Positions 9,182 through 34,540 of a DNA stretch of 64,000 nt are shown one piece after another. The notes under the pieces were generated by a model. That model was not told the origin of the DNA. It searched no databases and saw only the letters and a list, made by a program, of their open reading frames with translations. Source of the stretch: Candidatus Krumholzibacteriota bacterium (lineage in GTDB: Bacteria > Krumholzibacteriota > Krumholzibacteriia > Krumholzibacteriales > Krumholzibacteriaceae); NCBI GenBank assembly GCA_016932415.1, contig JAFGCX010000031.1, forward strand, positions 3,486-67,485, given 5' to 3'. The first letter of the stretch is position 1, and every line of letters begins with the position of its first letter. Position numbers and translations under genes: made by a program.

Positions 9182-9538
9182 TCACGGCTTTTCACGTTCA
9201 ATGAGTAGTTCGATTCTGCTGAAAACGGCATGCCATCTCTCAGGGTTTTCCTTCAGGCTGTCAATTGTCCTGAGGATCCTTTCCTTATCGACACCTTCTT
9301 TGAGGGTATCCCATTTTTTTAGGCTGTCAGACGGATTATCTTGGAGATTTTTCTCTAATTCGTTTATTTTTACGTAGAGTTGGACAATATACCGTTCATC
9401 GGCTGTCAGAGTAAAATCCTTTTCCGGAGTTTTACCACCCGGGTTATCGCAGCCCGCGTGAAGAACAAGGAAGACCTGAATGACAGGAATGAAGATCAGT
9501 GATCTTATCCTCGAAATATTGCGAAACAAAGAACTCAT
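9182..9538 (-). CDS. Hypothetical small lipoprotein (118 aa)
   Basis: Signal peptide plus lipobox (VLHAGC), then a charged helical region. No recognisable family. Convergent with rseP with no intergenic base. Confidence 0.45.
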   Translation of the reverse strand: MSSLFRNISRIRSLIFIPVIQVFLVLHAGCDNPGGKTPEKDFTLTADERYIVQLYVKINELEKNLQDNPSDSLKKWDTLKEGVDKERILRTIDSLKENPERWHAVFSRIELLIEREKP

Positions 9539-9627: not shown

Positions 9628-11571
9628 ATGAAGTTGTCAATTAATATGGTGGCGAGGACAATCAATCAGAATTCTGGAAGAATCGTCATTATACTTTTTC
9701 TTGTAATGCTGATCGCCGGATATTCCTCCGATCTGTTATCAGATGATTTCGGTCTCGATCTCCCTTACGTCAAAAGGATCGTCATACTTGGCAACGTGAC
9801 TTTTGACGACGGTATTCTCAAAAAGAGGATGAGGACCAGGGAAGCACGTTATTATAATATCTTCAACAAGCCACGTTTCAGAAGGGATTTCATCCGAAGG
9901 GACCTTGAAAGCCTGAAGACTTTCTATAGACTTAACGGATTTTTCGAAGTCACCGTTAATCTCGAGTCCATAGACAGGGATAAAAAGGGGAATCACGTCA
10001 CATTACGTATCTTGGTGAATGAAGGTCCGCAATCGATTGTACGCAGTCTGCATTTTTCCGATCAGGATGCAGTCGCTCCGGAAACGCTGATAAAAGGCCT
10101 CAGACTTACAAAAGGTATGCCTTATAACCCGAACCTGGTGGAGACGGACAGGTACACCCTTTTCAGCCATTTTTTCAGAAAGGGATATCTTGGCGCGATG
10201 GTCGCCTGCAATACGAGGGTAGATTCAACGGATATTGATATATCGTGGGAAATTGCTCCAGGATCCCCGGTCAGAGTGGAGAAGATAGACATAAGCGGAA
10301 ACCAGAAGGTCCGGGATGAGCTGATCCGAAGGGAATTAAAGATAGGATCGGGACAGTATTTTCAGCTCCGGAAAATAATCGAAAGCAAACAGAACCTTTA
10401 TGATACGGGATGTTTCAGCTCGGTGGAGATAGAACCCAAAGCGTTGGATGTTGATAGCGGAAAAGTCGATCTTCAGTTACAGGTCAGGGAAAGGAAGATG
10501 GGATATCTCGAATCGGGTCTCGGTGTCGGAAATGTTCACGCTAACAGGGTCTTTGCCGAATGGGGGCAGAGGAATCTTCTGGGACGGGGATACGCGCTGG
10601 ATATCAAAACGGCTTTTGCTTTCAGGATCTTCGAGGATAACAAGTATGCATTATCGGACGTCAAGTTTGAGAATAAATATCAACGGCACGAAGGCGAACT
10701 TAGATTCCCGCACATCCTGTCGACATGGAACACTTTTTCAGTGGGATCTTTTTACGAACGCGACGCCACAGTGGAACCGGTTATTGTCGAAGCGATCAGT
10801 TTTAACGGTACCGTATCGCGCAGGATCTCAAGGCAGACTTCACTTCTTCTTGGATATGTCTATGAAAAAATAAGAAGGCAGGATGCTATCGATGAAAAGG
10901 AAAGGTCACTTCGAAGGTCACTCGATTTTACTTACCACAGAGATACGAGGGATTTCTATTTTAATCCGCGGCGGGGAAGATACATCGCGCTTGAGGCGAG
11001 ATACGCCGGTGGGATCCTCGGGGGAGACGATCATTACTATTCCATAGTACCGTCATTTCAGGATTATCGCCGCCTGTCAGAAGAGACGGTCCTTGCGTAC
11101 AGGGTAAGGGCCGGTTACGCAAAAGCTTTTGGAGATAGCCGGGATACCGGGTTGCCGATCGAAAGCAGGTTTTTCCTCGGAGGAGGTAACTCTGTCAGGG
11201 GTTACCGCGAAAACACACTGGGACCTCTTAACAGCACGGGAACAGCCAGGGGAGGCAACATCATGCTTCTGGCGAATATTGAGATGAGGTTTCCACTGCC
11301 AGTGATCTCAAAATATAACTTCGGAGGAGCATTCTTCCTGGATGGCGGAAATGTCTGGGACTCCGTTTCCGATATAAAATTTGAAGAATTTGTTTTCATG
11401 AAGGAAAGATCCGATATATCGACCGCGGATTTCAGGTACAGTGCCGGTTTTGGATTGAGGTACTACACTCCGGTAGGACCTATCAGAATAGACGCGGGAT
11501 TTCCGATAACCCGGCCCGTAGACATCGATTACGATTACTGGATCCACATCAGCCTCGGACAGATCTTTTAA
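9628..11571 (+). CDS. Omp85-family outer-membrane assembly protein with about 3 POTRA domains (BamA/TamA-like)
   Basis: Signal/TM at the N-terminus, then three POTRA-length repeats of about 80 aa (aa about 48-290). The barrel follows, with RFFLGGGNSVRGY and a C-terminal ...WIHISLGQIF (terminal Phe). Confidence 0.85.
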   Translation: MKLSINMVARTINQNSGRIVIILFLVMLIAGYSSDLLSDDFGLDLPYVKRIVILGNVTFDDGILKKRMRTREARYYNIFNKPRFRRDFIRRDLESLKTFYRLNGFFEVTVNLESIDRDKKGNHVTLRILVNEGPQSIVRSLHFSDQDAVAPETLIKGLRLTKGMPYNPNLVETDRYTLFSHFFRKGYLGAMVACNTRVDSTDIDISWEIAPGSPVRVEKIDISGNQKVRDELIRRELKIGSGQYFQLRKIIESKQNLYDTGCFSSVEIEPKALDVDSGKVDLQLQVRERKMGYLESGLGVGNVHANRVFAEWGQRNLLGRGYALDIKTAFAFRIFEDNKYALSDVKFENKYQRHEGELRFPHILSTWNTFSVGSFYERDATVEPVIVEAISFNGTVSRRISRQTSLLLGYVYEKIRRQDAIDEKERSLRRSLDFTYHRDTRDFYFNPRRGRYIALEARYAGGILGGDDHYYSIVPSFQDYRRLSEETVLAYRVRAGYAKAFGDSRDTGLPIESRFFLGGGNSVRGYRENTLGPLNSTGTARGGNIMLLANIEMRFPLPVISKYNFGGAFFLDGGNVWDSVSDIKFEEFVFMKERSDISTADFRYSAGFGLRYYTPVGPIRIDAGFPITRPVDIDYDYWIHISLGQIF

Positions 11572-11585
11572 CGGAGCCAAGGGAT

Positions 11586-14500
11586 TTGGTTAAAAAAATA
11601 TTAAAATCAAGGATCACGTCATTCGTTTCGCTGATAATAAGCCTTCTGCTGACAATGACGATTGTCGCCGGGATCATCTTTCATACTGATTTCTTCGCGA
11701 AGAGAACGTCAACGATGTTTTCCCGGTATCTTTTCAGAGGGACCGGGTACACGCTGGAATTCAGGGCGATCTCCGGAAATCCGCTGGAGAGGATAAAAAT
11801 CGAAGATCTTCGTATCAGGTACAGGAGCAGTGAGTACGCCTTTGACCTTCTGCGTGTCGAAGAGATCTTCCTTAGCTATGATCTCGCGTCGCTATTCTCA
11901 ACCGAGCCGTCGATAAACGAAATTATTTTCAATAGACCTCATGCGTGGATCAAGCCTGATTCCACGGGGGAGAATATACTGCCATTTAATGGGACTTCCA
12001 CGGGTCGGTCAGGCCAGGTGAGATTCAGGGTGGAAAAATTCGATATCAATAACGGACAGTTAATATACCAGGGGAATCAGAGAGCCGACGCGTTGAAGAA
12101 TCTGAATCTGGAAGGTGCCGTACGTTCCGGGGAAAAAGGGATAATAGCCGATATCGGCTCGGGGAGTGCCGAGGATATAAGGCGAAAACTTCATATCAGG
12201 AATATAAGTGGCAATATAAGAAAGAACTCGGGAAGTCGATCTCCTGTAGACCGGATCGAAGTCAGTGACCTGTTCCTTGAACTGGATGAATCGTCGTTGC
12301 TGATCAACGGGACATTCGATCCCGATTCAACAAGGTTCGGGCTGAATATCGCCGCTGAACCATTTGATGTCGAGGAGATATCAAGGCTTGTAGGTATAGA
12401 ATCGGGACAGTTTGGAGAACTGCAGGGAGTCCTCGCGGTAGAGGGTACGACGGGAGATCTCAAGATACGCGGTATGTTGAACGGTATATTGTCAGGATTC
12501 GCGCTTGATGGGTTCAAACTCGACCTCCGGTACGACACAAGAGCGGTTATGCTGAACAGTGGAGAAGGAAGATTAAATGGCGCCCTTGTGAATGGTAGCG
12601 GTGTTATGCCGGTCAGTGGTGAGCGGATCATCAAACTTGATCTCGACGTCAATGATCTTGACCTCTCTGCCGGTTTCATAAGAAATAATTCGATTCCCGA
12701 CACAAGGTTCAACGGTATGTTGATATTGAGATATGATGTCGATTCGAAAGAATTGTATTTCACGATGGACCTGAAGGAAGGGCATCTCAGAAAAATACCA
12801 TTCAGCACAATGACTGCTTCGGGCTCATACAGGGCTGATACTCTCTTTATGGACCAGATGACAATGGCATATCCGACTCATGATATTTCGACTACAGGTA
12901 CGATATCCAGGGATGGTGGGATAAGGCTGTTCATCGATACCGAATGCGCTAAAGATGACACTTTGTTTTCATATTTCAATATAGACGAATATCGGGCGAA
13001 TCTTAAGTTCAACGGAATATGGGAAGGCAGTTTTGCCCGATGGGACCTCAGGGCCAGCGGATGTTGCACGGACATATTCTACAAAGGAGCGTACGTTCCT
13101 TCCGGAGATATTAAATTTGCTTTAAGCAGGGACGAATCATTTCGTTTCCTTTTTGAGATGCGGGGGGATAGCTGCGATATTGCGCCGTTGTCGTTTTCAG
13201 GGATAGACCTGTCCCTGGAATACAATGACAACATAACAAGTATCAAGAGACTGTACCTGCAGAGGCCGGGCCTGGTCGCCGACATGCGTGGAGATCTGAT
13301 AAAAAACGAAGATATAACCGAGATAGTATTCAATGAAGTCTCAATAGATGCCCTCGAGGAACGCTGGTTGAGCAATGGAAAATTCAGCGTCAACATAAGT
13401 GAATCAAGGATCGAGTTCGATGACCTGCAGCTTCATTCCAGGCTCGGGGCTCTCTATATGGGGTGTGTCGTGGGAAGAGAAGACCGGAGGATCAACGGGA
13501 ACTTTACTTTCGACAGGCTTGGGCTGTCACTTTTTAACGCGGCTGGACTGATCAATAAGCCGGTAACGGGGAAGGGAGCGGGAGTGATAAATTGCCGAGG
13601 AACGATCGACCAGCCCGGTTTTGACCTCGATATGGTTCTTGAGCAGATGATCTATGACAGCCTTTCCGTGGATTCTCTGAAACTTGTCGCGAACTATTCG
13701 GACCGGATATTCGAGATCGATACTTTGTATATCGATTCTCCTGAAGGCATCCTTGAGATGAAAGGCACAGTCTCGGGAACTGATCCAAGAGAACTTTTAA
13801 AAGGGAGGGAAAAGGCGCTGCGCGGAGCCGTTGCCGATTTAGACGCCGTATGCGAGGATCTTTCACTCGTACCGCTTTTTTCACTTTCGGAAAAATCACC
13901 TTTTTCAGGTGGTGATTTTACGGGAATAATATCGGTCAGGGATTCACTGACCCATCCCCTTCTTGGAGTCGAGGGAAAGATCTCAGGGCTTTCAACCGAT
14001 CGGTACAGGATCCCGATGATCGACATTTCAGCCGATATAGACAGACAGTCGCTCAAGCTCGATGGGATAATGGAATTATCACAAGGACAGAGAGGGAGAT
14101 TCAACGGAAATATCAATCTGAATCACGAGAAATGGTTCTATTCGATAGACCAGCATGAACCGATATCGGTCGGATTGAGTATTCCCGACGGGGAGTTGTC
14201 CAGCATCACAGGCATGACCGATATAATCGCCGAGGCCGAAGGAAGGTTTTCAGCCGAATTCACCGTAACCGGTACTGCTTCAGAACCCAAGCTGCGGGGA
14301 AGACTGGATCTTGACCAGGCAGGTTTCAGGCTGGGAGGGATGGAGGAAAGATACAGGGGGATCAGGGCTGTAATAACCCTGGACGATACGCTGGTCACGA
14401 TCAGGGAACTGCACGGGAAGGAAGGTAAGAACGGCAATTTCAATTGCGTGGGCAGCGTATCGCTCAAGGGATGGAGGCCAGAAAGGTATGACATAGATAT

Positions 14501-15479
14501 AGAAGTCGACAAGATTCTCATAGCGAGCATTCCCGATGTAATGGCGATAGTAAGTGGAAACCTTGCAGTCGGAACTACTGAAAGCGGTGGAAAGAAGATT
14601 CCCGTAGTCACGGGCGACCTGAGTGTCAACAGGGCTGAGGTGTATATAGATTTCGGCGATTTCGCCTCTGTGCAGAAAAGTGGATCGCTTGAGCCGCCGG
14701 GATGGATGGCGGAGGTCGACCTGGAAGTGAAGGGAAATACGTGGCTGAAGACACCGGACGCCAACGTCGAGATGGAAGGTGCTGTCACTCTGCATCATGA
14801 TCAGAAGGGGTCATACGTGCGCGGTTCCCTTAATCTTATAAGGGGCTGGTATAATGTCTATAATAACAAGTTCCGGGTATCTTCGGGGAAACTGGAATTC
14901 GTGCACGCCGACAGTTTCAGGCCTGTCATAGACGTTCAAGCCGAGACGAACGATCCCGAAGGCAGAAAGATCTATCTTACCCTTTCCTGGCACCAGGACG
15001 ATATCGAACCGAGGCTTTCCCTGTATCACGAGGACGCTGGATACAGCGAGACTGATATCTGGAAAATGCTCGGAGGAGGAGTCATCGGAACGTCGGAAGG
15101 GGCGGGTGCGAGCTGGGATGCCATGAATACAGCCCAGAACCTGGCGGCCAACTACATAGAACGGATGTTAAACTCCCAGATGCAGGGAGTATTAATAGAA
15201 GTCGAGACGAGTGGAGGAGCAAGCAGCGCTACAGAAGGGTTCGAGCCGGAAGAGACGATTGTGGCGATCGGCAAGTATCTCTCGGAAGGCCTTTATGTCA
15301 AATATAAACAAGGGTTGTCTATCTCAACGGCGCGTCATTTCGAGGTAGAATACAGGTTGAGCCGGCTCTTCCTGATCCGTTCCGAAGTCATAATGTATTC
15401 CGAGAAAGTACTTCAGGGCAGAAGCAAAAGAAACAGCGATGAGATCAACGTGGATTTCAAGGTCCGCTGGGAATTCTGA
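11586..15479 (+). CDS. tamB: Translocation and assembly module protein TamB (AsmA-like, DUF490 C-terminus); TTG start
   Basis: 1297 aa with an N-terminal TM anchor, a long beta-rich body and the C-terminal GKYLSEGLYVKYKQGL...EVEYRLSRLFLIRSEV pattern typical of TamB. Confidence 0.8.
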   Translation: MVKKILKSRITSFVSLIISLLLTMTIVAGIIFHTDFFAKRTSTMFSRYLFRGTGYTLEFRAISGNPLERIKIEDLRIRYRSSEYAFDLLRVEEIFLSYDLASLFSTEPSINEIIFNRPHAWIKPDSTGENILPFNGTSTGRSGQVRFRVEKFDINNGQLIYQGNQRADALKNLNLEGAVRSGEKGIIADIGSGSAEDIRRKLHIRNISGNIRKNSGSRSPVDRIEVSDLFLELDESSLLINGTFDPDSTRFGLNIAAEPFDVEEISRLVGIESGQFGELQGVLAVEGTTGDLKIRGMLNGILSGFALDGFKLDLRYDTRAVMLNSGEGRLNGALVNGSGVMPVSGERIIKLDLDVNDLDLSAGFIRNNSIPDTRFNGMLILRYDVDSKELYFTMDLKEGHLRKIPFSTMTASGSYRADTLFMDQMTMAYPTHDISTTGTISRDGGIRLFIDTECAKDDTLFSYFNIDEYRANLKFNGIWEGSFARWDLRASGCCTDIFYKGAYVPSGDIKFALSRDESFRFLFEMRGDSCDIAPLSFSGIDLSLEYNDNITSIKRLYLQRPGLVADMRGDLIKNEDITEIVFNEVSIDALEERWLSNGKFSVNISESRIEFDDLQLHSRLGALYMGCVVGREDRRINGNFTFDRLGLSLFNAAGLINKPVTGKGAGVINCRGTIDQPGFDLDMVLEQMIYDSLSVDSLKLVANYSDRIFEIDTLYIDSPEGILEMKGTVSGTDPRELLKGREKALRGAVADLDAVCEDLSLVPLFSLSEKSPFSGGDFTGIISVRDSLTHPLLGVEGKISGLSTDRYRIPMIDISADIDRQSLKLDGIMELSQGQRGRFNGNINLNHEKWFYSIDQHEPISVGLSIPDGELSSITGMTDIIAEAEGRFSAEFTVTGTASEPKLRGRLDLDQAGFRLGGMEERYRGIRAVITLDDTLVTIRELHGKEGKNGNFNCVGSVSLKGWRPERYDIDIEVDKILIASIPDVMAIVSGNLAVGTTESGGKKIPVVTGDLSVNRAEVYIDFGDFASVQKSGSLEPPGWMAEVDLEVKGNTWLKTPDANVEMEGAVTLHHDQKGSYVRGSLNLIRGWYNVYNNKFRVSSGKLEFVHADSFRPVIDVQAETNDPEGRKIYLTLSWHQDDIEPRLSLYHEDAGYSETDIWKMLGGGVIGTSEGAGASWDAMNTAQNLAANYIERMLNSQMQGVLIEVETSGGASSATEGFEPEETIVAIGKYLSEGLYVKYKQGLSISTARHFEVEYRLSRLFLIRSEVIMYSEKVLQGRSKRNSDEINVDFKVRWEF

Positions 15480-15555: not shown

Positions 15556-18500
15556 ATGAAGAAAACTGCCGGAATAGTGTTATTTTTTCTGGCCCTTGAT
15601 CTTTTCCTTTTACACCTGCCCCTTTCCAGTGTCAGCGCCCAGGCATGGTGGTTCGGAAAGAACAAGGTACAGTACAAGGATTTCGAATGGCAGATTCTCA
15701 AGACTCCTCATTTTGATATCCATTTCAACCAGGGGTACCGCGATCTCGCCGGCAGGACTGGCGTCGTCCTTGAATACGGTTACGGCAAGCTCTCCGTGGA
15801 CCTGAGGCATCACATATCATGGCGTATACCGGTGATCCTTTACGGCAGCCATTCGGATTTTCAACAGACCAACACGACCTGGCAGCTGCTTCCCGAGGGC
15901 GTACAGGCTTTCGCCGAACCGAGCAGAAGGAGGGTCGTCCTTCATTTCAACGGTTCAAACGTCGATTTCAGTCACACCGCGATACATGAACTTGTCCATA
16001 TTTTTCAATTCGACATTATATACGGAAGCCTTCTCAGATCAGTGTTTTCAAGGAATATGCTTTTTAATATTCCTCTCTGGTTTGCGGAGGGTACTGCGGA
16101 ATATTTCTCTGCCGGAGGAGTCGACGATGAATGCAGGATGTTCATGCGCGACGGTACGATCTTCGATTATCTTCCTTACGATCTGAATTATGCCGGTGGA
16201 TACATGAATTACAAGGCCGGACAGTCAGCAATATCCTATATCGCCGAGACTTATGGTAAGGAAAAGGTCATTGAACTGATGGATCAACTTCGGTTCAACA
16301 GGTCGATGGAGATGTCCCTTCATCGTACTATAGGTATCTCGACAGAGGAGCTTACGAAGAATTGGAAAAACAATCTCAGGCGGGAATACTGGCCCGAGTA
16401 CGCCGATAAGATGGAGGCGGAATCAATCGCCAGAAAAGTCACCGATCATCTTAAGAAGCATAACTATATAAACTCAAAACCCGTATTTTCGCCTGATGGA
16501 GAGTATATCGCCTATTATTCTGACAGGAGCGGTCTTGAAGGTATCTATATAATGGATTCAGTCACAGGCAAGAAGAAGAAAAAACTTCTTGTCGGGTCGA
16601 CATCGAGTCAGTTCGAATACATAAGGACGAGACTTTCAAGCCTGACGTGGAATCCTGAATCGTCGGAGATTGCTTTTGTCGCCAAGTCGGATGGAAGGGA
16701 CAGGTTGTTTCGGATGGGTGTCCCGGGGGGAAATATCATCGAGGAGATAGACCTTCCACTCGATTTCTTTTTCAACCCGGTATGGTCGCCGGACGGAGAA
16801 AAGATCATTGTCGTGGGCACGCTCAGGGGGCAGACAGATCTCTTTTTTTATGACCTTGGAATGAAGAAACTTTTCCAGGTCACCGATGATACATGTGATG
16901 AAAAATATCCCGCCTGGTTCCCCGACGGAAAGAGGATCGTATATACACGTTATCCCGAACCCGTCAAGCAGCCTGTCTTCACGACTGACAGCACCGGAGT
17001 GGACAGGATTGAGAACCTCGACTATGCTGACATGAGTAACGTTCTTTCCGTCAAGGGTGATATCTGGATGATAGATATCCTGAGCGGAGAGAAAAGGCTC
17101 GTTATCTCCACTCCAGGCAACGACGAATCGCCACAGATACTATCCAATGGCCTGGAACTGTTATTTGTCTCGGATGAATCAGGGATAAGCAATCTTTACC
17201 GTGGAAGCTTCGAAATCGGAAGCTACCACCGTTTTACCGACATACTCGGAGGCCTGTTCAATCCTTCCGTCTCAAACGTCAAGGACCGTCTGGTCTTCTC
17301 CGCTTTTAACGCCGCCGGGTATGATCTTTTCATAATGGATAATTTCGAGGAAAAGTCGAGGGTGTCATATTCGACGGGTGGGCCCCTGTTGGCCGGGATC
17401 AAGGAGGAAAAATGGCCTTCGTTCGGAGTGCTTCCGGAGATCGATCCCTATGGAGGTTCCGGGTTGGAAGGTCCTGACCCTGAGGTTGAGCGGATCACTG
17501 TGGAAGAAAAGATGCCAGGGTCGCCCGACGGGAAGGAAGATCAATCGGTCGATACAAGTTCCGGTGCTGGAACCCCCCAGGGAGGAAGGTTTCCCGGCAG
17601 GAGATGGGAAAACGGAGCCGAAGTACCTGACGTGGTTATCAACGAAGATTCAAAAGAGAGGATCGATCCAGATTCGCTCGAGGCCCTGCGCGAATCTTTC
17701 AGAAAACGTGTGGGCACAGTTGAAAAGTACAGAATCAAATTCTCTCCCGACTACATAGGAAACGGAATGGGGGTCTATTTCGCGACCGGACTCGGGTTCG
17801 GACTGTCCAACCAGATCGCGTTCAGCGACCTTCTGGGTGACCATCACCTCTTTCTGGCGTTCAGCCTCTATGGATCGGTAGAAGACAGCGATATGATGCT
17901 GTCATATTACTATGTCAAGAAGAGGATCGATTATTCGCTCGGTATCTTTCAGTTCAAGAACTACCTCAATTCCAGGTTCTCCTCCGTGGGGGAGACATTT
18001 CTGGACTACAGATATTTTACCGAGAGGAACTACGGCCTTTTTGGTAATGCTTCTTTTCCCTTTTCTACTTTTACAAGGGCGGAGATGGAACTCCAGGCGT
18101 ACATGAGTGAGAGGGAGTTTCTTATACTCGATGATGGATCGTATTACGGGTATACCGTTTATGACAGCGATGTATCGGTAAAGAGGATGTTGCAACCATC
18201 TTTTTCCATAGTTCATGACTCGGCTTACTACGGGTCTTTCGGACCAGTGATAGGGTCCAGATGGATGCTCAGTTTTTCAAGGGCCCTGTCGTTCAGTGGA
18301 CGCGACATATCGAGGACGACGGCGTTTCTCGATTATCGCAGGTACAGACCTCTCTTCTACAGGAACTACCTTGCCTTCAGGACAGTGGCAAGCAGCAGCA
18401 ACGGGGAAGATAGGCGGTATTTCTTCCTCGGAGGCCCGACGACGATGCGAGGATACGATTACCTGCAGTTCCAGGGTTCAAGGATGATGCTTTTCAACCT

Positions 18501-18807
18501 CGAGTACAGGTATCCACTCGTTGACGCGATAATATTCGGATGGCCGGGCAGATGGGCCTTGACGAATATCGGAGGGACGTTGTTTTTTGATACGGGATCT
18601 GTTTGGGGTGATGGAAGATATATCGAGAAGCTGCCCGCCGCAATAGACCCGGTGATGATAAACGATCTGGAGTTTTACAGTGATTTCGGGGTTGGATTCT
18701 ATATGAGGATGGGTTTTCTCATATTTAATTTTCAGCTTGCCTGGCCGACTGATTTTTCAAATACCGGTGAACCGGTGTTCCATTTTTATCTGGGTCCGCA
18801 ATTCTGA
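15556..18807 (+). CDS. Fusion protein: Peptidase_MA-like HExxH domain + PD40 (TolB-type) beta-propeller + Omp85-type beta-barrel
   Basis: ATG 15556 follows GGAGGAGGA and starts a signal peptide. HELVH at 15985..15999 with WFAEGTAEY downstream. PD40 blades (SPDGEYIAYYSDRSG, WSPDGEKIIVVG, WFPDGKRIVYTR...). C-terminal FFLGGPTTMRGYDY...FHFYLGPQF. Confidence 0.7.
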   Translation: MKKTAGIVLFFLALDLFLLHLPLSSVSAQAWWFGKNKVQYKDFEWQILKTPHFDIHFNQGYRDLAGRTGVVLEYGYGKLSVDLRHHISWRIPVILYGSHSDFQQTNTTWQLLPEGVQAFAEPSRRRVVLHFNGSNVDFSHTAIHELVHIFQFDIIYGSLLRSVFSRNMLFNIPLWFAEGTAEYFSAGGVDDECRMFMRDGTIFDYLPYDLNYAGGYMNYKAGQSAISYIAETYGKEKVIELMDQLRFNRSMEMSLHRTIGISTEELTKNWKNNLRREYWPEYADKMEAESIARKVTDHLKKHNYINSKPVFSPDGEYIAYYSDRSGLEGIYIMDSVTGKKKKKLLVGSTSSQFEYIRTRLSSLTWNPESSEIAFVAKSDGRDRLFRMGVPGGNIIEEIDLPLDFFFNPVWSPDGEKIIVVGTLRGQTDLFFYDLGMKKLFQVTDDTCDEKYPAWFPDGKRIVYTRYPEPVKQPVFTTDSTGVDRIENLDYADMSNVLSVKGDIWMIDILSGEKRLVISTPGNDESPQILSNGLELLFVSDESGISNLYRGSFEIGSYHRFTDILGGLFNPSVSNVKDRLVFSAFNAAGYDLFIMDNFEEKSRVSYSTGGPLLAGIKEEKWPSFGVLPEIDPYGGSGLEGPDPEVERITVEEKMPGSPDGKEDQSVDTSSGAGTPQGGRFPGRRWENGAEVPDVVINEDSKERIDPDSLEALRESFRKRVGTVEKYRIKFSPDYIGNGMGVYFATGLGFGLSNQIAFSDLLGDHHLFLAFSLYGSVEDSDMMLSYYYVKKRIDYSLGIFQFKNYLNSRFSSVGETFLDYRYFTERNYGLFGNASFPFSTFTRAEMELQAYMSEREFLILDDGSYYGYTVYDSDVSVKRMLQPSFSIVHDSAYYGSFGPVIGSRWMLSFSRALSFSGRDISRTTAFLDYRRYRPLFYRNYLAFRTVASSSNGEDRRYFFLGGPTTMRGYDYLQFQGSRMMLFNLEYRYPLVDAIIFGWPGRWALTNIGGTLFFDTGSVWGDGRYIEKLPAAIDPVMINDLEFYSDFGVGFYMRMGFLIFNFQLAWPTDFSNTGEPVFHFYLGPQF

Positions 18808-18923
18808 TAATCCCGTATTTACCACATGGATCAGTAATGGTATTATATCCGGCACGGTATTTCGCGACTGCCGGTGAGCCGGACGATAGGTTTGCGGGTG
18901 AACAGCAAAAGGAAAAGCGCTTC

Positions 18924-21083
18924 ATGATGAAATTCGATCTTAATCCGCGGCAGAAGGAAGCAGTGCTATCCACTGATGGATACTATCTTATTCTCGCCGG
19001 CGCGGGAAGCGGGAAAACAAGGGTCCTGACTGAAAGGATCGCCTACCTGATAAGAGAAAAAAATGTATCTCCGGAAAGGATCCTCGCCTTCACCTTCACT
19101 AATAAAGCGGCCGGAGAGATGCGAGCCCGCGTTGAAAGATCCCTTTCGCAAAGAAAAATTCCTTTCTGGGTCTCCACGTTCCATTCTACGGGGCTGAAAA
19201 TATTACGGAAAGAGGCGAACAGGATCGGGTTCAGGAACAATTTCGCGATATATGACGAGGATGATTCGATCAGGTTGATCAAGGATATCATCAGGAAGAA
19301 AAACTGGAATCTCGATGAATATCCGCCTTCGATCGTCCGGAACAGGATCTCCGCGTGGAAGAACAGTCTTGTCACTCCCGACGAAGCGGTCGAGACAGCC
19401 ATCGACGGTATTGAAGAGCTTCAGGCAAAGGTCTATCTTGCCTATGACATCGAACTGAAGAGATCCAATTCCTTTGATTTTGACGATCTGATAACCAGGG
19501 TCGTCGAACTCTTTACCGCCCATCCAAAGATAAGGGAAAGGTATGCCAGGCAATTCAAGTACGTCCTCGTTGACGAGTTCCAGGATACCAACACGATCCA
19601 GATGATGATGATCGATATGCTCGCGTCGAAGAACAGGAACCTGTTTGTCGTCGGAGACGACGATCAGGCTATCTATGGATGGCGGGGGGCGACGATCGAG
19701 AATATACTCCAGTTCGACAGGCTGTATGAAGGGACCGTAACGATCCGCCTCGAGGAGAATTATCGCTCTACAAACAATATTCTGTCCGCTTCCAACGCTG
19801 TCATATCGAATAATCTCGATCGCAAAGGGAAGAAGCTCTGGTCAAAAAAGGGTGATGGTGAAAAAGTACGGACAGTCTACGCGTCTGATGACAGGGGAGA
19901 GGCCCTCGCGGTAAGGGAAGCCGTGATGAGATTGATAAGGAACGGATACAGGAGGGATGAGATAGCAGTCCTCTACAGGACTCACGCCCAGTCAAGGGCG
20001 CTCGAAACGGCAATGATAAGGGGAGGGCTCCCATACCAGATAATCGGAGGAGTTAGGTTCTATGAGAGAAAAGAAATAAAAGACCTTCTCGGGTATCTGA
20101 AACTGGTCAACAATCCTGATGACAACCTTAATTTCAAGCGAGTGATAAATGTCCCGAAGAGAGGTATTGGAAACGTTACGATAGAAAGGATAGAGGAAGA
20201 AGCGGGGGACGGGAGTCTTCTGCCGGCAATCATATCGGGTGAGATACTCGACAGGTTTTCCTCATCCCAGAGGAAGCGTATAGAAGAATTTTCAAAACTG
20301 ATTTCAGTAATGCGATTAAGGGCCAAAAACGACACGGCTTATGAAATACTGTCATATCTAATAGAAACAATTGGATACAGAGAATACTTAAAGGAAGATA
20401 TCAAGACTGCGCAGGTGAGGCTGGAGAATGTAGAGGAATTGCTCAACGAGACGAAGAGATTCGCCGCTGTCTCGGATGACCCCTCGCTACCCGCATTTCT
20501 CGAGGAGATAGCTCTGATAAGCAATGTCGATTCGATGAGAGATGAAGACAAAATCGCTCTTATGACCCTTCACAATTCGAAAGGCCTCGAATACAGATCA
20601 GTGATGATCACGGGGCTCGAGGAAGGCCTGTTACCGCATTTCTCGTCTTTTGATGACGAGAGGGAGATGGAAGAGGAAAGAAGGCTTTTTTACGTCGGAA
20701 TGACAAGGGCGAAAGAGGAATTATATCTTTTCTGCGCGGCAAGCAGGATGCAATTCGGCAACTGGAACGACAACCGACCTTCCAGGTTTCTCGAAGAGAT
20801 CCCTGAAAAGTATAAGGAGATAACCGGCGTAAACCGGCAGATCGAAGGAGGGGGCGATATTTTCAGGCAGGTAGATCAGATCGAATCGCTGGAACGCGGT
20901 GAGGACAGGATAAGCAATGACAGCAGGTTCAGAGTAGGGGTCTCGATCTCTCATCCATCATTCGGCGAAGGGACGATAAAGAAGGTGGAAGGGACGGGGA
21001 TGGAGATGAGAGTGACCGTTCACTTCACCGGATTCGGGCAGAAGAAATTCCTGGCTCATTACGCGCCATTCAGGTTCAATTAA
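18924..21083 (+). CDS. uvrD: ATP-dependent DNA helicase, UvrD/PcrA family
   Basis: LNPRQKEAV...ILAGAGSGKTRVLTERIAYL...FTNKAAGEM...VLVDEFQDTN...VVGDDDQAIYGWRGA...YRST...TLHNSKGLEY...LFYVGMTRAKE. Start taken at MMKFDL (18924). Confidence 0.9.
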   Translation: MMKFDLNPRQKEAVLSTDGYYLILAGAGSGKTRVLTERIAYLIREKNVSPERILAFTFTNKAAGEMRARVERSLSQRKIPFWVSTFHSTGLKILRKEANRIGFRNNFAIYDEDDSIRLIKDIIRKKNWNLDEYPPSIVRNRISAWKNSLVTPDEAVETAIDGIEELQAKVYLAYDIELKRSNSFDFDDLITRVVELFTAHPKIRERYARQFKYVLVDEFQDTNTIQMMMIDMLASKNRNLFVVGDDDQAIYGWRGATIENILQFDRLYEGTVTIRLEENYRSTNNILSASNAVISNNLDRKGKKLWSKKGDGEKVRTVYASDDRGEALAVREAVMRLIRNGYRRDEIAVLYRTHAQSRALETAMIRGGLPYQIIGGVRFYERKEIKDLLGYLKLVNNPDDNLNFKRVINVPKRGIGNVTIERIEEEAGDGSLLPAIISGEILDRFSSSQRKRIEEFSKLISVMRLRAKNDTAYEILSYLIETIGYREYLKEDIKTAQVRLENVEELLNETKRFAAVSDDPSLPAFLEEIALISNVDSMRDEDKIALMTLHNSKGLEYRSVMITGLEEGLLPHFSSFDDEREMEEERRLFYVGMTRAKEELYLFCAASRMQFGNWNDNRPSRFLEEIPEKYKEITGVNRQIEGGGDIFRQVDQIESLERGEDRISNDSRFRVGVSISHPSFGEGTIKKVEGTGMEMRVTVHFTGFGQKKFLAHYAPFRFN

Positions 21084-23205: not shown

Positions 23206-24240
23206 TCACGGCCTGAGATCCTCTATAAACGAAGCGTCTATCCAGTATATCCCCGCGGATCCGCCGCCCGGTTCACTTGACATCCTTATCATAAGGTCGC
23301 GCGTCATGCCCCCATCGGGATGTTCGAATTCCTTTTTCATCCTTGCCGACATAAAAAATAAATATTTTCCATCGGGGGATATATACGCGGAATGTTCACG
23401 CCCTCCTGGCGTGTTGACCTTCGCGCCCATATTGACAAGGTCGGACCATGTGTCATCGGGATCGCGGAAACTTATGAAATAATCATCCCCGCCGAGTCCG
23501 TCTTCTCTGCCCGCGACCGGGACGATAATGAAATCCTCATCGGGAGATATGAAAGCGTTATACTGAGCCGAAGTGGAATTGACGTTTTCCGGGAGCTTCT
23601 CCGCTTCGGTATATTTTCCATCAATGAGCCGTGATCTGAAGATGTAGCTCGACCTGCCCTCGTTACGCGTAAAATAGAGCGTACCATCCCTTGTAATCGA
23701 TGGAAAGAATTCAGCCGCTTCAGTCGTGATCGGAGGCCCGGGCGTGTAAGGTTCGCTCCACGAATCGCCGATCCTGTCCATCATCCATATATTCTGGCTT
23801 CCCGCGGCGATCCCGTTCGCCGAGTCAGGTCTGGTGGACAGAAACATGAATCTGCTTCCGTCGGGAGAGATGGCAGGTTCAGCGTCCATATAATCGGGAT
23901 TTCCCGAGAAAGAGGCGACTTCCGGTTTTGTCCAGACTCCGTTGATATTCTTCGTACAGAGGATCTGGGTTATCCTGTAGAACCCGACAATAGCGGTGAA
24001 ATATATCTCTTTTCCGTCCGGAGTCATGGCGATATCCCTCGTGAAGAGCCCTGTCGTCACAAGCCCCGGCGCGAACAGTTCAGGTTCGAGTCCGGGCGTG
24101 TCCTGTCCGAGATACTCGCCCGTAAGAACGGGAAACGTCTGGTCTCCGGACGAACGAGGACCGTCAGAGCAACCAGAAAGCATTATAAAAATGACCGGTA
24201 CGACAGTGAGGGTCGATTTCAGTATCGAGGAAAGACGCAT
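23206..24240 (-). CDS. PD40/TolB-like beta-propeller lipoprotein
   Basis: Start ATG 24240 preceded by GGAGG. Lipobox MLSGC. Repeated PD40 blades (TPDGKEIYFT, SPDGSRFMFLSTRPD, TRDGTLYFTRNEG, SPDGKYLFFMSAR). Confidence 0.7.
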   Translation of the reverse strand: MRLSSILKSTLTVVPVIFIMLSGCSDGPRSSGDQTFPVLTGEYLGQDTPGLEPELFAPGLVTTGLFTRDIAMTPDGKEIYFTAIVGFYRITQILCTKNINGVWTKPEVASFSGNPDYMDAEPAISPDGSRFMFLSTRPDSANGIAAGSQNIWMMDRIGDSWSEPYTPGPPITTEAAEFFPSITRDGTLYFTRNEGRSSYIFRSRLIDGKYTEAEKLPENVNSTSAQYNAFISPDEDFIIVPVAGREDGLGGDDYFISFRDPDDTWSDLVNMGAKVNTPGGREHSAYISPDGKYLFFMSARMKKEFEHPDGGMTRDLMIRMSSEPGGGSAGIYWIDASFIEDLRP

Positions 24241-24348
24241 CAGACATACCTCCGCTAAAAAGAGATGACAGCCAACGGGCAGGCGGGCATGAGAATTATA
24301 CATCAGGCCAGGCGACCGGGCAACAGTGATCTTGAAAGGCCGCCGGGA

Positions 24349-24870
24349 TCAGCTGTCCAGGAACTCGAAATACTCGAGCTCCCTGAAATGGAATAACCGC
24401 GCGAGGATAAGATCAGGAAAACTGCTGATCAGCGTATTGTACCGCATCACTATATCGTTGTAGATCTGCCTGGAGAACCTTATTTTTTCCTCCGTCTCCT
24501 TCAGTTCATCCTGTAGCCTGATAAAATTACCACTGGCTTTGAGTGATGGATACTGTTCCTTCAGGGCGATGAGTGATTTCAATGACTTCGACAGATTATT
24601 TTCCTTTCCAGTCCTCTCTTTCTGCCTGGCGGCGACAGCTTCAGAACGGCTTTTCGTGACTTCATCGAAGACTCTGGCTTCGTGAGCGGCGTATCCCTTC
24701 ACGATCTCGACGATATCAGGGATCAGCTGATGCCTGCGTTTAAGCTGTATATCGATCTGGGATGCGGCGTTTGAGCACCTGTTTCTGTATTTTACAAACC
24801 GGTTAAAGACTATCGCTATCCATACGAAAAGGGACGCGGCGGCAATCGAATAAATATAGATCCGGGTCAT
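24349..24870 (-). CDS. lemA: LemA family protein
   Basis: N-terminal TM, then IDIQLKRRHQLIPDIVEIVKGYAAHEARVFDEVTKSR...LKASGNFIRLQDEL...RQIYNDIVMRYNT, the typical LemA pattern. Confidence 0.85.
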   Translation of the reverse strand: MTRIYIYSIAAASLFVWIAIVFNRFVKYRNRCSNAASQIDIQLKRRHQLIPDIVEIVKGYAAHEARVFDEVTKSRSEAVAARQKERTGKENNLSKSLKSLIALKEQYPSLKASGNFIRLQDELKETEEKIRFSRQIYNDIVMRYNTLISSFPDLILARLFHFRELEYFEFLDS

Positions 24871-24933: not shown

Positions 24934-26895
<1,962 letters not shown>

Positions 26896-30346: not shown

Positions 30347-30940
30347 TCAATCCTGAAGGATCATCTTCGTCATGCGGAAGAAGACGACAACGATGGTCAG
30401 CGACATGAGGGCGGATATGGAAATTATCAATGTCTGATCCATCTCACCCGATCTCATGACGAGAGAACCGGTATCCTCGATAAATTTTGTGACGGCAGAG
30501 CAATACCGGGCCAATGCCGCTGAAAGGCTTGCCGTAATAGATTCGATCCCGTTACCGGTCAGACGATCGACAAGAGATGCATATTCCGAGGATAGCCGAA
30601 GCAGGACAGATTCTACGTCCCTCCGAAAAATCGATACCGCGGTGGCGGATAAAGCTATAAGAGCAGGCATAAGGAAGGGAAGACGGAAGATTGCCGACAG
30701 GGAAGCTTTTTTCTTTCCGATGTTCAATCGATCAAGCACCGATGATGAAATGACAGAGAGATCGGGCAATTCGCCGCTGAGAGCCTCGAGTGATGATTCG
30801 AGTTCGATATACCGGCCCAGGGCCATCGCGCAGCTCTCGCAGGTCCCGATATGATCTTTCACTGCCTTTGTCTCGGATACTGAAAGGTCTCCATCGATGT
30901 AGCGGGGCAGTATCTCTTCGAATTTCCGGCAATCATCCAT
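30347..30940 (-). CDS. Anti-sigma factor, zf-HC2 type, membrane-spanning
   Basis: MDDCRKFEE...HIGTCESC (H-x3-C-x2-C) and two TM segments. ATG 30940 is preceded by GAAGGAGAG and overlaps the sigma gene stop by 8 nt. Confidence 0.75.
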   Translation of the reverse strand: MDDCRKFEEILPRYIDGDLSVSETKAVKDHIGTCESCAMALGRYIELESSLEALSGELPDLSVISSSVLDRLNIGKKKASLSAIFRLPFLMPALIALSATAVSIFRRDVESVLLRLSSEYASLVDRLTGNGIESITASLSAALARYCSAVTKFIEDTGSLVMRSGEMDQTLIISISALMSLTIVVVFFRMTKMILQD

Positions 30941-31520
30941 TCCGGTCTCTCCTTCGATCATACTCGCTCTGATGTGAAAACATATCCTTCAATTCATTCC
31001 GGGCCCTGTGAAGATATGTCTTAACCGTTCCTATCGGGATCTCCATGATCTCGGATATCTCGATATATGATTTTTCCGCGAGGTACCTCAATTCGATCAC
31101 TTCCCTGTATTTACCATCAAGCCTGGCGATAAGGCCGCGAATCTCGGCAGAATCCTGCCGGGCCAGGAATACCCTGTCGGGGCGCTGATTCGACGGCCCG
31201 GAAAGATCGATGGTATCGACCGGCACTGTCTCGGGCCTTTTTTTTCCCCTGGCGTTGAAAGATTCGTTTCTGGCGATCGTATATATCCAGGTCGATAATC
31301 TCGAGTCTCCACGGAACCGGGAGAGTCCGCGATATATTTTAATGAAAATATCCTGGACGAGATCATCGATGTCGTCGCTGTTTCCGATGACCGATCTGAC
31401 CGCTGAATATACGACCGGGGCATGTTTTTCAATAATCGCACGAAAAGCTCTTTCACTTCCGTTAAGCGATTTTTTGACCAGTTCATTATCATCGGCACCT
31501 TTCAAAACCCGGTTCTCCAT
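30933..31520 (-). CDS. ECF-type RNA polymerase sigma factor (sigma-70 group 4)
   Basis: Region 2 (DDIDDLVQDIFIKIYRGLSRFRGDSRLSTWIYTIARNE) and region 4 (REVIELRYLAEKSYIEISEIMEIPIGTVKTYLHRAR). Confidence 0.9.
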   Translation of the reverse strand: MENRVLKGADDNELVKKSLNGSERAFRAIIEKHAPVVYSAVRSVIGNSDDIDDLVQDIFIKIYRGLSRFRGDSRLSTWIYTIARNESFNARGKKRPETVPVDTIDLSGPSNQRPDRVFLARQDSAEIRGLIARLDGKYREVIELRYLAEKSYIEISEIMEIPIGTVKTYLHRARNELKDMFSHQSEYDRRRDRNG

Positions 31521-32246: not shown

Positions 32247-33731
32247 ATGAGATTGTTCGCCCTGGTAGTCTGCCTGTCGACCCTCGTTTCAAGCTGCGCA
32301 TGGATCGGTGATGATATCGATACCGGAGTTCCTCTCGTCAAGCCCGGTCCCGGCTTCAGGATCCCGGCGGATACTCTGTACGGAGCCGCGGGCAGAGTAA
32401 TAGATGTCGAATTCGTTCCGAAGCAGAACAGGCTCGTTTCGCTGGCTGCAACCGGCAGTGAAAGCTCGGTGATCTCATTTTTTCACGCCCCGTCAGGGAA
32501 ACTCGAAAATACGATGGAGAACGACAGGTTTCTTGATCTCGACACGGGATTCAGTAACGATGGCAGAAAATGGGCGATCGGAAGCAGAACGGTTTTTCTA
32601 CTCAACACGGAAGACAAGAGGATCATCAGGGTCTTCGAATCAGATTCATACCAGCATCAGAAACTGCTTGATATAGATATGACCGTAGCCTGGCCGTTCG
32701 GGATCAGGAATTACGAGGTGATGAAGAAATATCATTACGTGACCGCGCTTGCGTTTTCGCGCGACGACAGGTATATGGCCTCGGGGCATGTCAACTGCCA
32801 GGTCAGGGTATGGGAGATCAGATCGGGTAAACTCCTCCTGACTCTATGGCTTTCAAAAATACACGAAGCTGTCTCTGATCTTGAATTCAGTCCTGATGGA
32901 AGGTTTATCGCCGCCACGCAAAATGACAGTAAGATCTACTTCTGGGAATTCCCTTCGGGAAAGGAGAGGCATATCGAGGGACACGGCAAATCGGTCAACG
33001 CTGTATCCTTTGATCCCTCGGGGAGGTGGCTTGCTTCGGGCAGTGATGACAGAACCGTCAGATTGTGGGATACCGGTACCGGTGACCTGCTCAGGGTATT
33101 CACGGGTCACGAAGATGACGTCCTTTCGACCGCTTTCACATCGAACGGGGAGTACATAGCGAGTGCCGGGAGAGATGGAAAAATAAAAATATGGGAAGCG
33201 CGTTCGGGATATGAGATCGTCACCCTGGCCGGTCATTCGGCCCAGGTGAACAGTATCTCATTCAACTCGAATGCGTCTCTGCTCGCGAGCGGCAGTGACG
33301 ATATGACAGTAGTCATATGGGACATCTCCCGGTTTGACCTGGTGCGCGACAGTTCAGCGATCCCCATGGCGGTCTATCCCGCGAGGATAAGGGGGAAGGT
33401 CGAAGTTGATGACGAAAGCGGAGACGGCAGATTTTCACCGATGGAAAAGGGCAGCCTTTCCGTAACGGTGGAGAACACCGGAGAGGAAGCGGCGTACAGG
33501 GTAGTAATGATGATCCTGCCTTCAGGCGATACATCCGATTTTATAACAGGCGATTCGGATGTGATCGAGATGATACTGCCGGGAAAATCGGTGACCTCTG
33601 TTATACCGGTGATCCGAACGGAAAGCCCCGCAAACGGAGATGAAGCTGGATTTGAACTCCGATGCTACGAATTCAACGGTTTCCACCTGCAGGAACCGGT
33701 GAGGTTCTCGATCCCCAGGGCCCGGGAATGA
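32247..33731 (+). CDS. Exported WD40-repeat lipoprotein with C-terminal beta-sandwich-like domain
   Basis: Lipobox LVSSC. Canonical WD repeats (GHGKSVNAVSFDPSGRWLASGSDDRTVRLWD, GHEDDVLSTAF...GKIKIWE, GHSAQVNSISF...SDDMTVVIWD). The C-terminal about 120 aa resembles CARDB/Ig-like modules. Confidence 0.75.
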   Translation: MRLFALVVCLSTLVSSCAWIGDDIDTGVPLVKPGPGFRIPADTLYGAAGRVIDVEFVPKQNRLVSLAATGSESSVISFFHAPSGKLENTMENDRFLDLDTGFSNDGRKWAIGSRTVFLLNTEDKRIIRVFESDSYQHQKLLDIDMTVAWPFGIRNYEVMKKYHYVTALAFSRDDRYMASGHVNCQVRVWEIRSGKLLLTLWLSKIHEAVSDLEFSPDGRFIAATQNDSKIYFWEFPSGKERHIEGHGKSVNAVSFDPSGRWLASGSDDRTVRLWDTGTGDLLRVFTGHEDDVLSTAFTSNGEYIASAGRDGKIKIWEARSGYEIVTLAGHSAQVNSISFNSNASLLASGSDDMTVVIWDISRFDLVRDSSAIPMAVYPARIRGKVEVDDESGDGRFSPMEKGSLSVTVENTGEEAAYRVVMMILPSGDTSDFITGDSDVIEMILPGKSVTSVIPVIRTESPANGDEAGFELRCYEFNGFHLQEPVRFSIPRARE

Positions 33732-33892: not shown

Positions 33893-34540
33893 ATGAAGAT
33901 GGGGAAAATATTCCGTTTCCTTATCCAGGTAACATTTCTAATCATAATTATTCTCGTTACTGCCTCTTCCGCGGGCGCCGAGGTCGTGATAAACGAGATC
34001 ATGGCTGATCCGGCGAGGGACTGGGACGGCGACGGCGAGTACAATTACAGGGACGATGAATGGATCGAGATACTCAACACCGGCTCCTCAGGTGTCGATC
34101 TGTCAGGGTATCTGTTGAGCGACGGGGAAAGCGCGCCTGTCTGGAGATTCGGTTTTTCGGGGATGCTGATGCCGGGATCGGTGATGGTTGTATTTGGAAG
34201 CGATTCGAGGGCCTGGGAAGAATCGAATGACCAGCCGGTCTATGGCCTGAGCCTTAATAACGCGGGCGATCAGGTCTCCCTCTACCGCGTAGCAGATGGC
34301 GACACGATACTCGTCGATCATCTTGTCTTCAGCGACAAGGCAGCGGAGGATGACCGTACGCTTGGACGCTCGTTGGCCGATACCTGGCGCTGGGAACTGT
34401 ACGACGCGTATAATCCCTGTACCGGTACATGCGATCCAGCCGGAAACGGGTGCTTGCCGACTCCCGGCCATTCGAACGGGTGCATAACCGCGGCAGGGGA
34501 AGATACCTGGGGGAGCATCAAACAGAAGTACCAGCAGTAG
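33893..34540 (+). CDS. Secreted lamin-tail-domain (LTD) protein with Cys-rich C-terminus
   Basis: Signal peptide, then VVINEIMADPARDWDGDGEYNYRDDEWIEILNTGSSGVDLSGYLLSDG...SLNNAGDQVSLY, the typical LTD pattern. Tail is NPCTGTCDPAGNGCLPTPGHSNGC. Confidence 0.7.
   Translation: MKMGKIFRFLIQVTFLIIIILVTASSAGAEVVINEIMADPARDWDGDGEYNYRDDEWIEILNTGSSGVDLSGYLLSDGESAPVWRFGFSGMLMPGSVMVVFGSDSRAWEESNDQPVYGLSLNNAGDQVSLYRVADGDTILVDHLVFSDKAAEDDRTLGRSLADTWRWELYDAYNPCTGTCDPAGNGCLPTPGHSNGCITAAGEDTWGSIKQKYQQ

Follow-up and report, generated by a model that had tools for sequence, protein, structure and literature searches.

A POTRA-less WD40-Omp85 protein with a predicted zinc peptidase domain and a TolB-type propeller, encoded next to tamB in Krumholzibacteriota

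Gene and locus

A 64,000-nucleotide stretch of contig JAFGCX010000031.1 from a Candidatus Krumholzibacteriota bacterium, referred to here as the window, carries a gene of the WD40-Omp85 type, the product of which joins a predicted zinc-peptidase domain and a β-propeller to a C-terminal Omp85 β-barrel (Table 1). The gene order around it is rpsB–tsf–pyrH–frr–uppS–cdsA–dxr–rseP, then a gene for an Omp85 protein with three POTRA domains, tamB, the gene itself and pcrA. The last four are all on the forward strand, with successive gaps of 14, 76 and 29 nucleotides. A preliminary description of this DNA had read the gene as a single uninterrupted frame of 1083 amino acids (aa) that follows an Omp85(3-POTRA)–tamB pair on the same strand; the open reading frame (ORF) with its translation, and the Pfam matches of the two neighbouring proteins, bear out both points. 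The coordinates that it gave for the HELVH motif, the downstream glutamate E178, the FFLGGPTTMRGYDY motif and the terminal Phe are also exact.

The frame comprises 1083 codons plus a stop. If read from its earliest possible start, at 15439, the ORF would overlap the 3′ end of tamB. We consider the ATG at 15556 to be the better start because a ribosome-binding site, GGAGGAGG, lies just 5′ of it, because a signal-peptide-like sequence (MKKTAGIVLFFLALDLFLLHLPLSSVSA/QA) opens directly at this codon, and because the alignments of homologues begin at query residue ~1–30. Right after the signal peptide comes the segment FGKNKVQYKDFEW (FGKNKVQY..W), of which F33, G34, N36, K37 and W45 are kept in 240–245 of 253 relatives. 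Residues 24–37 have a predicted local distance difference test score (pLDDT) below 50 in the AlphaFold model, and the FGKNKVQYKDFEW segment might serve as a docking strand or in autoinhibition.

At the other end of the gene, a terminator-like hairpin with a T-run (18760..18789, +) lies inside the last ~15 codons, just 5′ of the pcrA start. It may be coincidental; the region has no more terminator-like sites than shuffled sequence does.

Table 1. Features of the WD40-Omp85-type gene and of its neighbours in the window
Feature	Position	Strand	Evidence
Whole gene, 1083-aa WD40-Omp85-type protein	15556..18807 (including stop)	+	ORF, translation, ribosome-binding site, full-length homologues of 43–77% identity
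Signal peptide, residues 1–28 (...SSVSA/QA), type I, no lipobox	15556..15639	+	Read by eye from sequence; helix 2–23 in model
Conserved N-terminal motif FGKNKVQYKDFEW, residues 33–45	15652..15690	+	Conservation in 253 relatives
Predicted gluzincin (clan MA) zinc-peptidase domain, residues 45–282	15688..16401	+	Pfam Peptidase_MA_2, domain model, Foldseek
HELVH zinc-binding/catalytic motif (H144, E145, H148), residues 144–148	15985..15999	+	Conservation in 253 relatives
WFAEGTAEY; E178 (16087..16089) likely third zinc ligand, E182 invariant	16078..16104	+	Conservation
Six-bladed TolB/PD40-type β-propeller, residues ~300–600	16453..17355	+	PD40, TolB sequence matches, model strands, Foldseek
Disordered G/E/P-rich linker, residues 608–690	17377..17625	+	pLDDT, composition
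16-stranded Omp85 β-barrel, residues ~721–1083, terminal Phe	17716..18804	+	AlphaFold2, Foldseek, hhalign
Loop-6 motif FFLGGPTTMRGYDY, Omp85 hallmark, residues 956–969 (MRGY, 964–967)	18421..18462	+	Conservation, hhalign
Extended periplasmic turn between strands 12 and 13, PLVDAIIFGWPGRWALTN, residues 987–1004, family signature	18514..18567	+	hhalign insertion, conservation
FFDTG, FxDxG motif of strand 13 (loop-6 partner in BamA), residues 1010–1014	18583..18597	+	Conservation, hhalign
BamA/TamA-family Omp85 with three POTRA domains	9628..11571	+	Pfam Omp85 and POTRA (three); TIGR03303 BamA, 335 bits against a cutoff of 297
TamB	11586..15479	+	Pfam TamB, 119.6 bits; stop 76 nucleotides before the gene
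PcrA/UvrD helicase	18837..21083	+	Pfam and NCBIfam; 29 nucleotides downstream of the gene

Relatives and integrity of the fusion

The 120 relatives listed by a search with the full-length protein are 43–77% identical to it and ~1040–1140 aa long, except for two that are truncated (940 and 976 aa). Most come from metagenome-assembled genomes (MAGs) of Krumholzibacteriota, Latescibacterota and Chitinivibrionia. Without filters, a search of 1.84 billion cluster representatives returned 1163 clusters (50% identity) at E ≤ 1e-30. The best 150 of these are 30–62% identical to the query; most are 920–1170 aa long, and the others, which are shorter and reach down to 357 aa, are apparently fragments. 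All conservation counts given here refer to an alignment of 253 full-length members that span 30–100% identity. When homologues of the barrel alone were sought, only fragments of the same family were returned and no other type of Omp85.

More than 250 colinear full-length homologues (920–1250 aa) from independent assemblies, including complete MAG chromosomes, rule out an assembly chimera or a frameshift, the probability of which we regard as negligible. Judged from these homologues, the protein is a real, old and colinear fusion.

A predicted gluzincin peptidase domain

The N-terminal module had been read as a Peptidase_MA_2-like gluzincin domain, and this assignment agrees with the profile match, the modelled fold and the conservation of the motif. 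Pfam Peptidase_MA_2 (PF13485) matches residues 93–274 with 36.6 bits, against a gathering score of 32.4. A model of residues 30–296 (pLDDT 85; predicted template-modelling score (pTM) 0.84) retrieved with Foldseek, as first matches, peptidase domains from M9 collagenases of clostridia and Vibrio (E 5e-6, TMq 0.54–0.61), followed by M1 aminopeptidases, including tricorn-interacting factor F3, PepN, ERAP1 and LTA4 hydrolase; the M9 and M1 catalytic-domain matches together range from E 5e-6 to 1e-3, with TMq values of 0.5–0.6. On the evidence of the model, the N-terminal domain has a gluzincin fold. A profile search of PDB sequences with the alignment of this domain gave no significant match, and we therefore place its kinship with the M9 and M1 families at the level of the clan only.

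The motifs tell a similar story of likeness and divergence. The HExxH motif and a downstream Glu in a W-x-x-E-G context are common to this domain and to the M9 and M1 gluzincins (fold TM 0.5–0.6), but the sequence identity is only 9–17% and the spacer between HExxH and the Glu is 29 residues here. The GxMEN motif of M1 aminopeptidases is lacking; in its place, on the upstream strand, is a conserved [AG]F[AT]E motif, of which E121 is kept in 243 of 253 relatives and the following Pro in only 128. We take E178 to be the probable third zinc ligand, the analogous motif in M1 peptidases being 'WLNEGFA'.

H144, H148, E178 and E182 are each present in all 253 relatives and E145 in 252, and HExxH occurs in nearly all of the 146 representatives of 50%-identity clusters. 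From this pattern of conservation, the protease site is almost certainly catalytic.

A TolB-type propeller and a variable linker

The central region matches PD40 in Pfam with 75 bits and is also matched by the sequences of TolB entries in the PDB, and its top structural match in Foldseek is TolB (E 4.6e-13). The full-length model contains 24 strands between residues 305 and 595, which correspond to six blades, as in TolB; the propeller itself had been recognized in the preliminary description, in which its size was put at 'at least five' PD40/TolB-type blades, a number that we refine to six. We rejected the possibility that the protein is a TolB orthologue, because the TIGR02800 score of 119 bits is far below the cutoff of 343 and the match covers only the propeller positions. 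The six-bladed PD40 propeller is what the two proteins have in common, and TolB is the best match to residues ~300–600 in both sequence and structure, but the TolA-binding α/β domain at the N terminus of TolB is absent here and replaced by the peptidase, and this protein is anchored in the membrane by a barrel. A PD40-type propeller beside a catalytic domain is a feature shared with the propeller-gated peptidases tricorn and the S9 family, and homologues of our protein carry precomputed Tricorn_N and Tricorn_2nd matches.

The propeller is followed by a low-complexity linker rich in G, P and E, as had been described. Residues 608–690 consist of 19% G, 13% E and 12% P and have pLDDT values below 50. 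Over the interval that corresponds to query residues 601–695, the linker varies in length from 12 to 203 aa (median, 87) among the 253 relatives, and in residues 608–690 only 9% of positions match the query across the family. Roughly 70–110 of the 253, depending on the position, lack the helix that directly precedes the barrel. Because the linker is unconserved and variable in length and the pre-barrel helix is often missing, we interpret this region as a tether rather than as a segment that spans a pore.

A divergent Omp85 barrel without POTRA domains

The full-length AlphaFold2 model (mean pLDDT 80.9, pTM 0.72) contains 16 strands over residues 730–1081, mostly with pLDDT above 75. Foldseek matches of the barrel include BamA in the BAM–EspP complex (8qn4_A, E 4.7e-9, 436 columns; BAM, β-barrel assembly machinery) and Toc75 (7vcf_B). 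Comparison of the family profile with the BamA-like protein of the window by hhalign gave 94% probability over the C-terminal half-barrel of the latter, including the loop-6 (FFLGG..RGY) and FxDxG (F.D.G) motifs. The support from Omp85 hidden Markov models (HMMs) on this sequence is borderline: Pfam Omp85 (PF01103) does not match at E ≤ 0.1 and NCBIfam Omp85_fam matches weakly, with 27 bits against a cutoff of 200. Thus, the barrel claimed in the preliminary description stands on the model, Foldseek and hhalign, but at the level of direct HMM matches the claim holds only in part. Precomputed PF01103 matches are present in many homologues, and the sequence is a divergent member of Omp85.

In loop 6, R965 is kept in 249 and G966 in 250 of 253 relatives, and the motif aligns with FFLGGGNSVRGY of the neighbouring BamA-like protein. 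The FxDxG motif (D1012 in 249 relatives, G1014 in 240) aligns with FLDGG of the same neighbour, and the terminal Phe, F1083, is kept in 230. In the hhalign comparison, the turn PLVDAIIFGWPGRWALTN, which joins strands 12 and 13, appears as inserted sequence with respect to the BamA-like neighbour; it includes P997 (243 of 253), was chosen as the most conserved pattern of the family and is a candidate for a family-specific interaction surface. The 16-stranded barrel, the (V/M)RGY sequence of loop 6, FxDxG and a C-terminal aromatic residue are shared with BamA, TamA and TamL. These proteins bear POTRA domains, whereas ours has none and instead has the long disordered linker and the extended turn between strands 12 and 13. 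The absence of POTRA had been claimed earlier and is confirmed both by the lack of a POTRA match in the Pfam HMM search of this protein and by the model, in which only two short helices (residues 696–699 and 705–716) and one short strand stand between the linker and the barrel.

The fraction of positions that match the query across the 253 relatives is 0.50 for the peptidase, 0.45 for the barrel, 0.39 for the propeller and 0.09 for the linker. Because the barrel is nearly as conserved as the peptidase and keeps the loop-6 RGY and FxDxG motifs, we conclude that it is constrained like a working Omp85 and is more than a passive anchor. The joint conservation of the active-site residues and of the loop-6 and FxDxG motifs speaks for an active protease on a functional Omp85 barrel.

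Relation to WD40-Omp85 and other known systems

Heinz and Lithgow split the Omp85/TpsB superfamily into ten subfamilies in 2014, one of which they named 'WD40-Omp85' (PMC4104836). In their Table S2 this subfamily consists of PF01103 with one to five PD40 repeats, and in Table S3 the best Phyre2 matches of its members are BamA/TamA barrels, TolB and M1-type 'aminopeptidase' structures (1z5h, 4kxd, 4fgm and 4ar1). Their definition of the superfamily is based on the barrel, with POTRA domains typical but not required (PMC4104836), and later papers keep the classification, for example with the wording 'WD40 and peptidase domains' (PMC11358297). Our protein has the same barrel, PD40 propeller and aminopeptidase-like N-terminal region, likewise lacks POTRA and shows no architectural difference from the subfamily. 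The gene is a member of WD40-Omp85, an assignment made by matching its domain profile to Tables S2 and S3. The arrangement had been called functionally undescribed in the preliminary description; as an architecture, it was already catalogued in 2014 (PMC4104836). What is new is the lineage of this member, which is Krumholzibacteriota-like by the names of its closest homologues. The placement of the subfamily next to tamB is mentioned neither in the 2014 study nor in a paper on the evolution of TAM, the translocation and assembly module (PMC4494059), and a recent TamL study makes no mention of WD40-Omp85 in tamB operons.

The type Vd proteins PlpD and FplA also fuse an N-terminal enzyme to an Omp85-type barrel of 16 strands. 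They differ from our protein in that they keep one POTRA domain and carry a patatin lipase, whereas ours has a metallopeptidase and a propeller and gave no Pfam match to either patatin or POTRA. To our knowledge, PlpD and the POTRA-bearing Omp85 proteins (BamA, TamA and TpsB) are the only ones of this kind to have been studied so far.

As a working analogy we use BepA of Escherichia coli, a periplasmic zinc protease that acts at BAM in the quality control of outer-membrane proteins. BepA combines an M48 HExxH protease with a TPR domain and is a soluble partner, whereas our protein has a Peptidase_MA_2 domain with an M9/M1-like fold and a propeller, both fused to a barrel; there is no homology between the two beyond the level of the clan.

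Genomic context

We surveyed 80 loci from GTDB species genomes, of which 49 include ~10 kb of upstream sequence. The order rseP–Omp85–tamB–X–pcrA, in which X is the gene described here, is present in 47 of these 49 loci, from Krumholzibacteriota, Latescibacterota and Fibrobacterota, and is retained at identities as low as 37% for X and 23% for TamB. Two further representatives (42% and 36% identity) have the same order, one of them with a tamB stop that overlaps the start of X. The conserved Omp85–tamB–X block across three phyla is possibly a new element. On the basis of gene order and spacing, the gene is probably co-transcribed with tamB and the gene for the three-POTRA Omp85 protein in this lineage.

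Members outside this block have other neighbours. In an unlinked clade from Chitinivibrionales, which includes the cultured Chitinispirillum alkaliphilum (loci L081, 1..9520, and L089, 1..9490), the gene is divergent from a TPR–TPR–ExbB–ExbD–ExbD cluster, and the copy in L081 also has an OmpA-like gene beside it. Large TPR proteins flank the unlinked members in loci L084 and L087. A Chitinivibrionia MAG (L033) has a copy linked to tamB. Because Chitinivibrionia hold both a tamB-linked copy and the unlinked clade, the family probably has paralogues.

The three-POTRA Omp85 gene of the window holds the canonical position of bamA after rseP, yet it encodes only three POTRA domains and is followed by tamB instead of skp. 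Its product may be either the only BamA of the genome or a TamA-like paralogue. In Fibrobacter succinogenes, an Omp85 gene is next to Skp (PMC6851124); our search for skp between rseP and the Omp85 gene found none, either in the window or in locus L076. What does lie between these two genes in the window is a 118-aa ORF on the reverse strand (9182..9538) with a lipoprotein-like signal (LHAGC) and no Pfam match. An ORF in the same position in locus L085 was considered as a relative of it and rejected, as the two are not homologous.

Proposed role and alternatives

We propose, tentatively and with a little less than even confidence, that the protein is a metalloprotease that is anchored in the outer membrane, faces the periplasm and is gated by its propeller, and that it takes part in the quality control or processing of envelope proteins near BamA and TamB. 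The 16-stranded Omp85 barrel would sit in the outer membrane and, through a flexible tether of ~80 residues, hold the peptidase, packed beside the six-bladed propeller. PD40/TolB-type propellers and the N-terminal modules of Omp85 proteins are normally periplasmic, and this soluble module would likewise face the periplasm, as an active peptidase. As in tricorn, in S9 peptidases and in TolB-box recognition, the propeller may restrict binding or entry to polypeptide that is extended and unfolded. Envelope proteins, for instance outer-membrane proteins that are stalled or not assembled, would then be trimmed or degraded by the enzyme near the place where they are inserted. Because the gene is probably co-transcribed with those for Omp85 and TamB, the protein may be an accessory of the Omp85–TamB machinery for outer-membrane biogenesis, in a role like that of BepA at BAM but with unrelated domains.

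A periplasmic quality-control or substrate-processing role linked to BAM or TAM had already been suggested in the preliminary description and is plausible. The linkage to tamB in three phyla speaks for this suggestion, and several observations weigh against both it and the more specific proposal made here. Six of the eight more distant members that we sampled are next to neither tamB nor an Omp85 gene. In addition, pcrA, which is unrelated to the envelope, is as conserved in its position as tamB; for this reason conservation of the order says little by itself in favour of a shared function, and the block may reflect a frozen gene order instead. TAM assembles autotransporters, and the linkage to tamB would fit equally well with the protein as a client of TamB rather than its partner. 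Finally, our literature searches found no experimental study of any WD40-Omp85 member, in agreement with the earlier statement that the arrangement is functionally undescribed.

The main alternative, which we consider improbable, is that the protein is a surface-exposed, autotransporter-like protease. The barrel would export its own N-terminal protease–propeller passenger, through or beside itself, as has been proposed for the type Vd proteins PlpD and FplA, to digest extracellular proteins or peptides, and the gene would follow bamA–tamB because BamA and TamB assemble its product. The order of parts, with the enzyme at the N terminus, then a long disordered linker and finally an Omp85 barrel without POTRA, is what such a protein would have. 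PlpD provides a precedent (PMC4104836), TAM has a role in autotransporter assembly (cf. PMC11014939), and it is to secreted M9 collagenases that the peptidase domain is closest in structure. However, conservation is strict for the loop-6 lid motif, by which Omp85 barrels are closed, there is no conserved helix that could span the pore (the helix before the barrel is short and often absent), and six-bladed propellers of the TolB/PD40 type are typically periplasmic. The locus, moreover, is a housekeeping block for envelope biogenesis and not one for nutrient acquisition.

Conservation of the Omp85 functional motifs would also suit a non-proteolytic assembly factor, in which the barrel inserts outer-membrane proteins, the propeller scaffolds partners and the peptidase-like domain only binds substrate. 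This resembles the idea of a BamA fused to a BamB-like propeller that was put forward by Heinz and Lithgow (PMC4104836). We judge it quite unlikely: the four zinc-binding and catalytic residues are essentially invariant over 253 relatives, which would be unexpected for a pseudo-enzyme, no POTRA domain is present to receive substrates, and the propeller, being of the TolB/PD40 type, has six blades, as opposed to eight in BamB.

The likeness of the propeller to TolB could instead mean that the protein is an outer-membrane-anchored analogue of TolB that works in a trans-envelope system of the Tol–Pal or ExbBD kind and not with BamA and TamB. Consistent with this are the divergent TPR–TPR–ExbB–ExbD–ExbD cluster beside the unlinked Chitinivibrionales paralogues, an ExbB–ExbD–ExbD–TonB cluster ~7 kb downstream of the gene in L084, and the FGKNKVQYKDFEW motif, which, conserved and unmodelled, recalls the disordered, TolA-binding N terminus of TolB. 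We give this possibility only a slight chance, given the sub-cutoff TIGR02800 score and the peptidase in place of the N-terminal domain of TolB. No Tol or Exb genes are found among the ~44 ORFs scanned in the window, and the association with Exb genes is limited to a few loci.

A bolder form of the proposal, to which we assign a low probability, is specific to the Fibrobacterota–Latescibacterota–Krumholzibacteriota group. There, the protein could be a dedicated third subunit of the Omp85(3-POTRA)–TamB machine, a second, POTRA-less Omp85 barrel that brings a propeller-gated zinc protease to the site at which outer-membrane proteins and lipids are inserted; or else the barrel could export the protease. 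If the former were true, proteolysis would be fused directly to the apparatus of outer-membrane assembly, and if the latter, the family would represent a new class of type V secretion, one without POTRA.

Outer-membrane biogenesis has Omp85 proteins at its core, and WD40-Omp85 is a large subfamily, with hundreds of full-length representatives and an invariant active site. Its placement beside Omp85 and tamB genes in three phyla yields the testable idea of a quality-control protease that is attached to, or assembled by, the BamA/TamB machinery, and C. alkaliphilum is identified here as a cultured carrier of the gene, with F. succinogenes as a possible second. The value of these observations is in sharpening an old open question, rather than in adding a new kind of system.

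Other features of the window

A separate 365-aa protein with PD40 repeats and a lipobox-like LSGC sequence is encoded on the reverse strand (23206..24303), adjoined by genes for LemA (24349..24870) and a DUF2207 membrane protein (24934..26895). An extracytoplasmic function (ECF) sigma factor and a zf-HC2 anti-sigma factor form a pair on the reverse strand (30347..31520). This pair is followed by a 494-aa protein with WD40 repeats of the eukaryotic (G-beta) type (32247..33731) and then by a protein with a Lamin-tail domain (33893..34540). A large metallopeptidase of 947 aa, similar to M6 immune inhibitor A, is encoded on the forward strand at 46845..49688.

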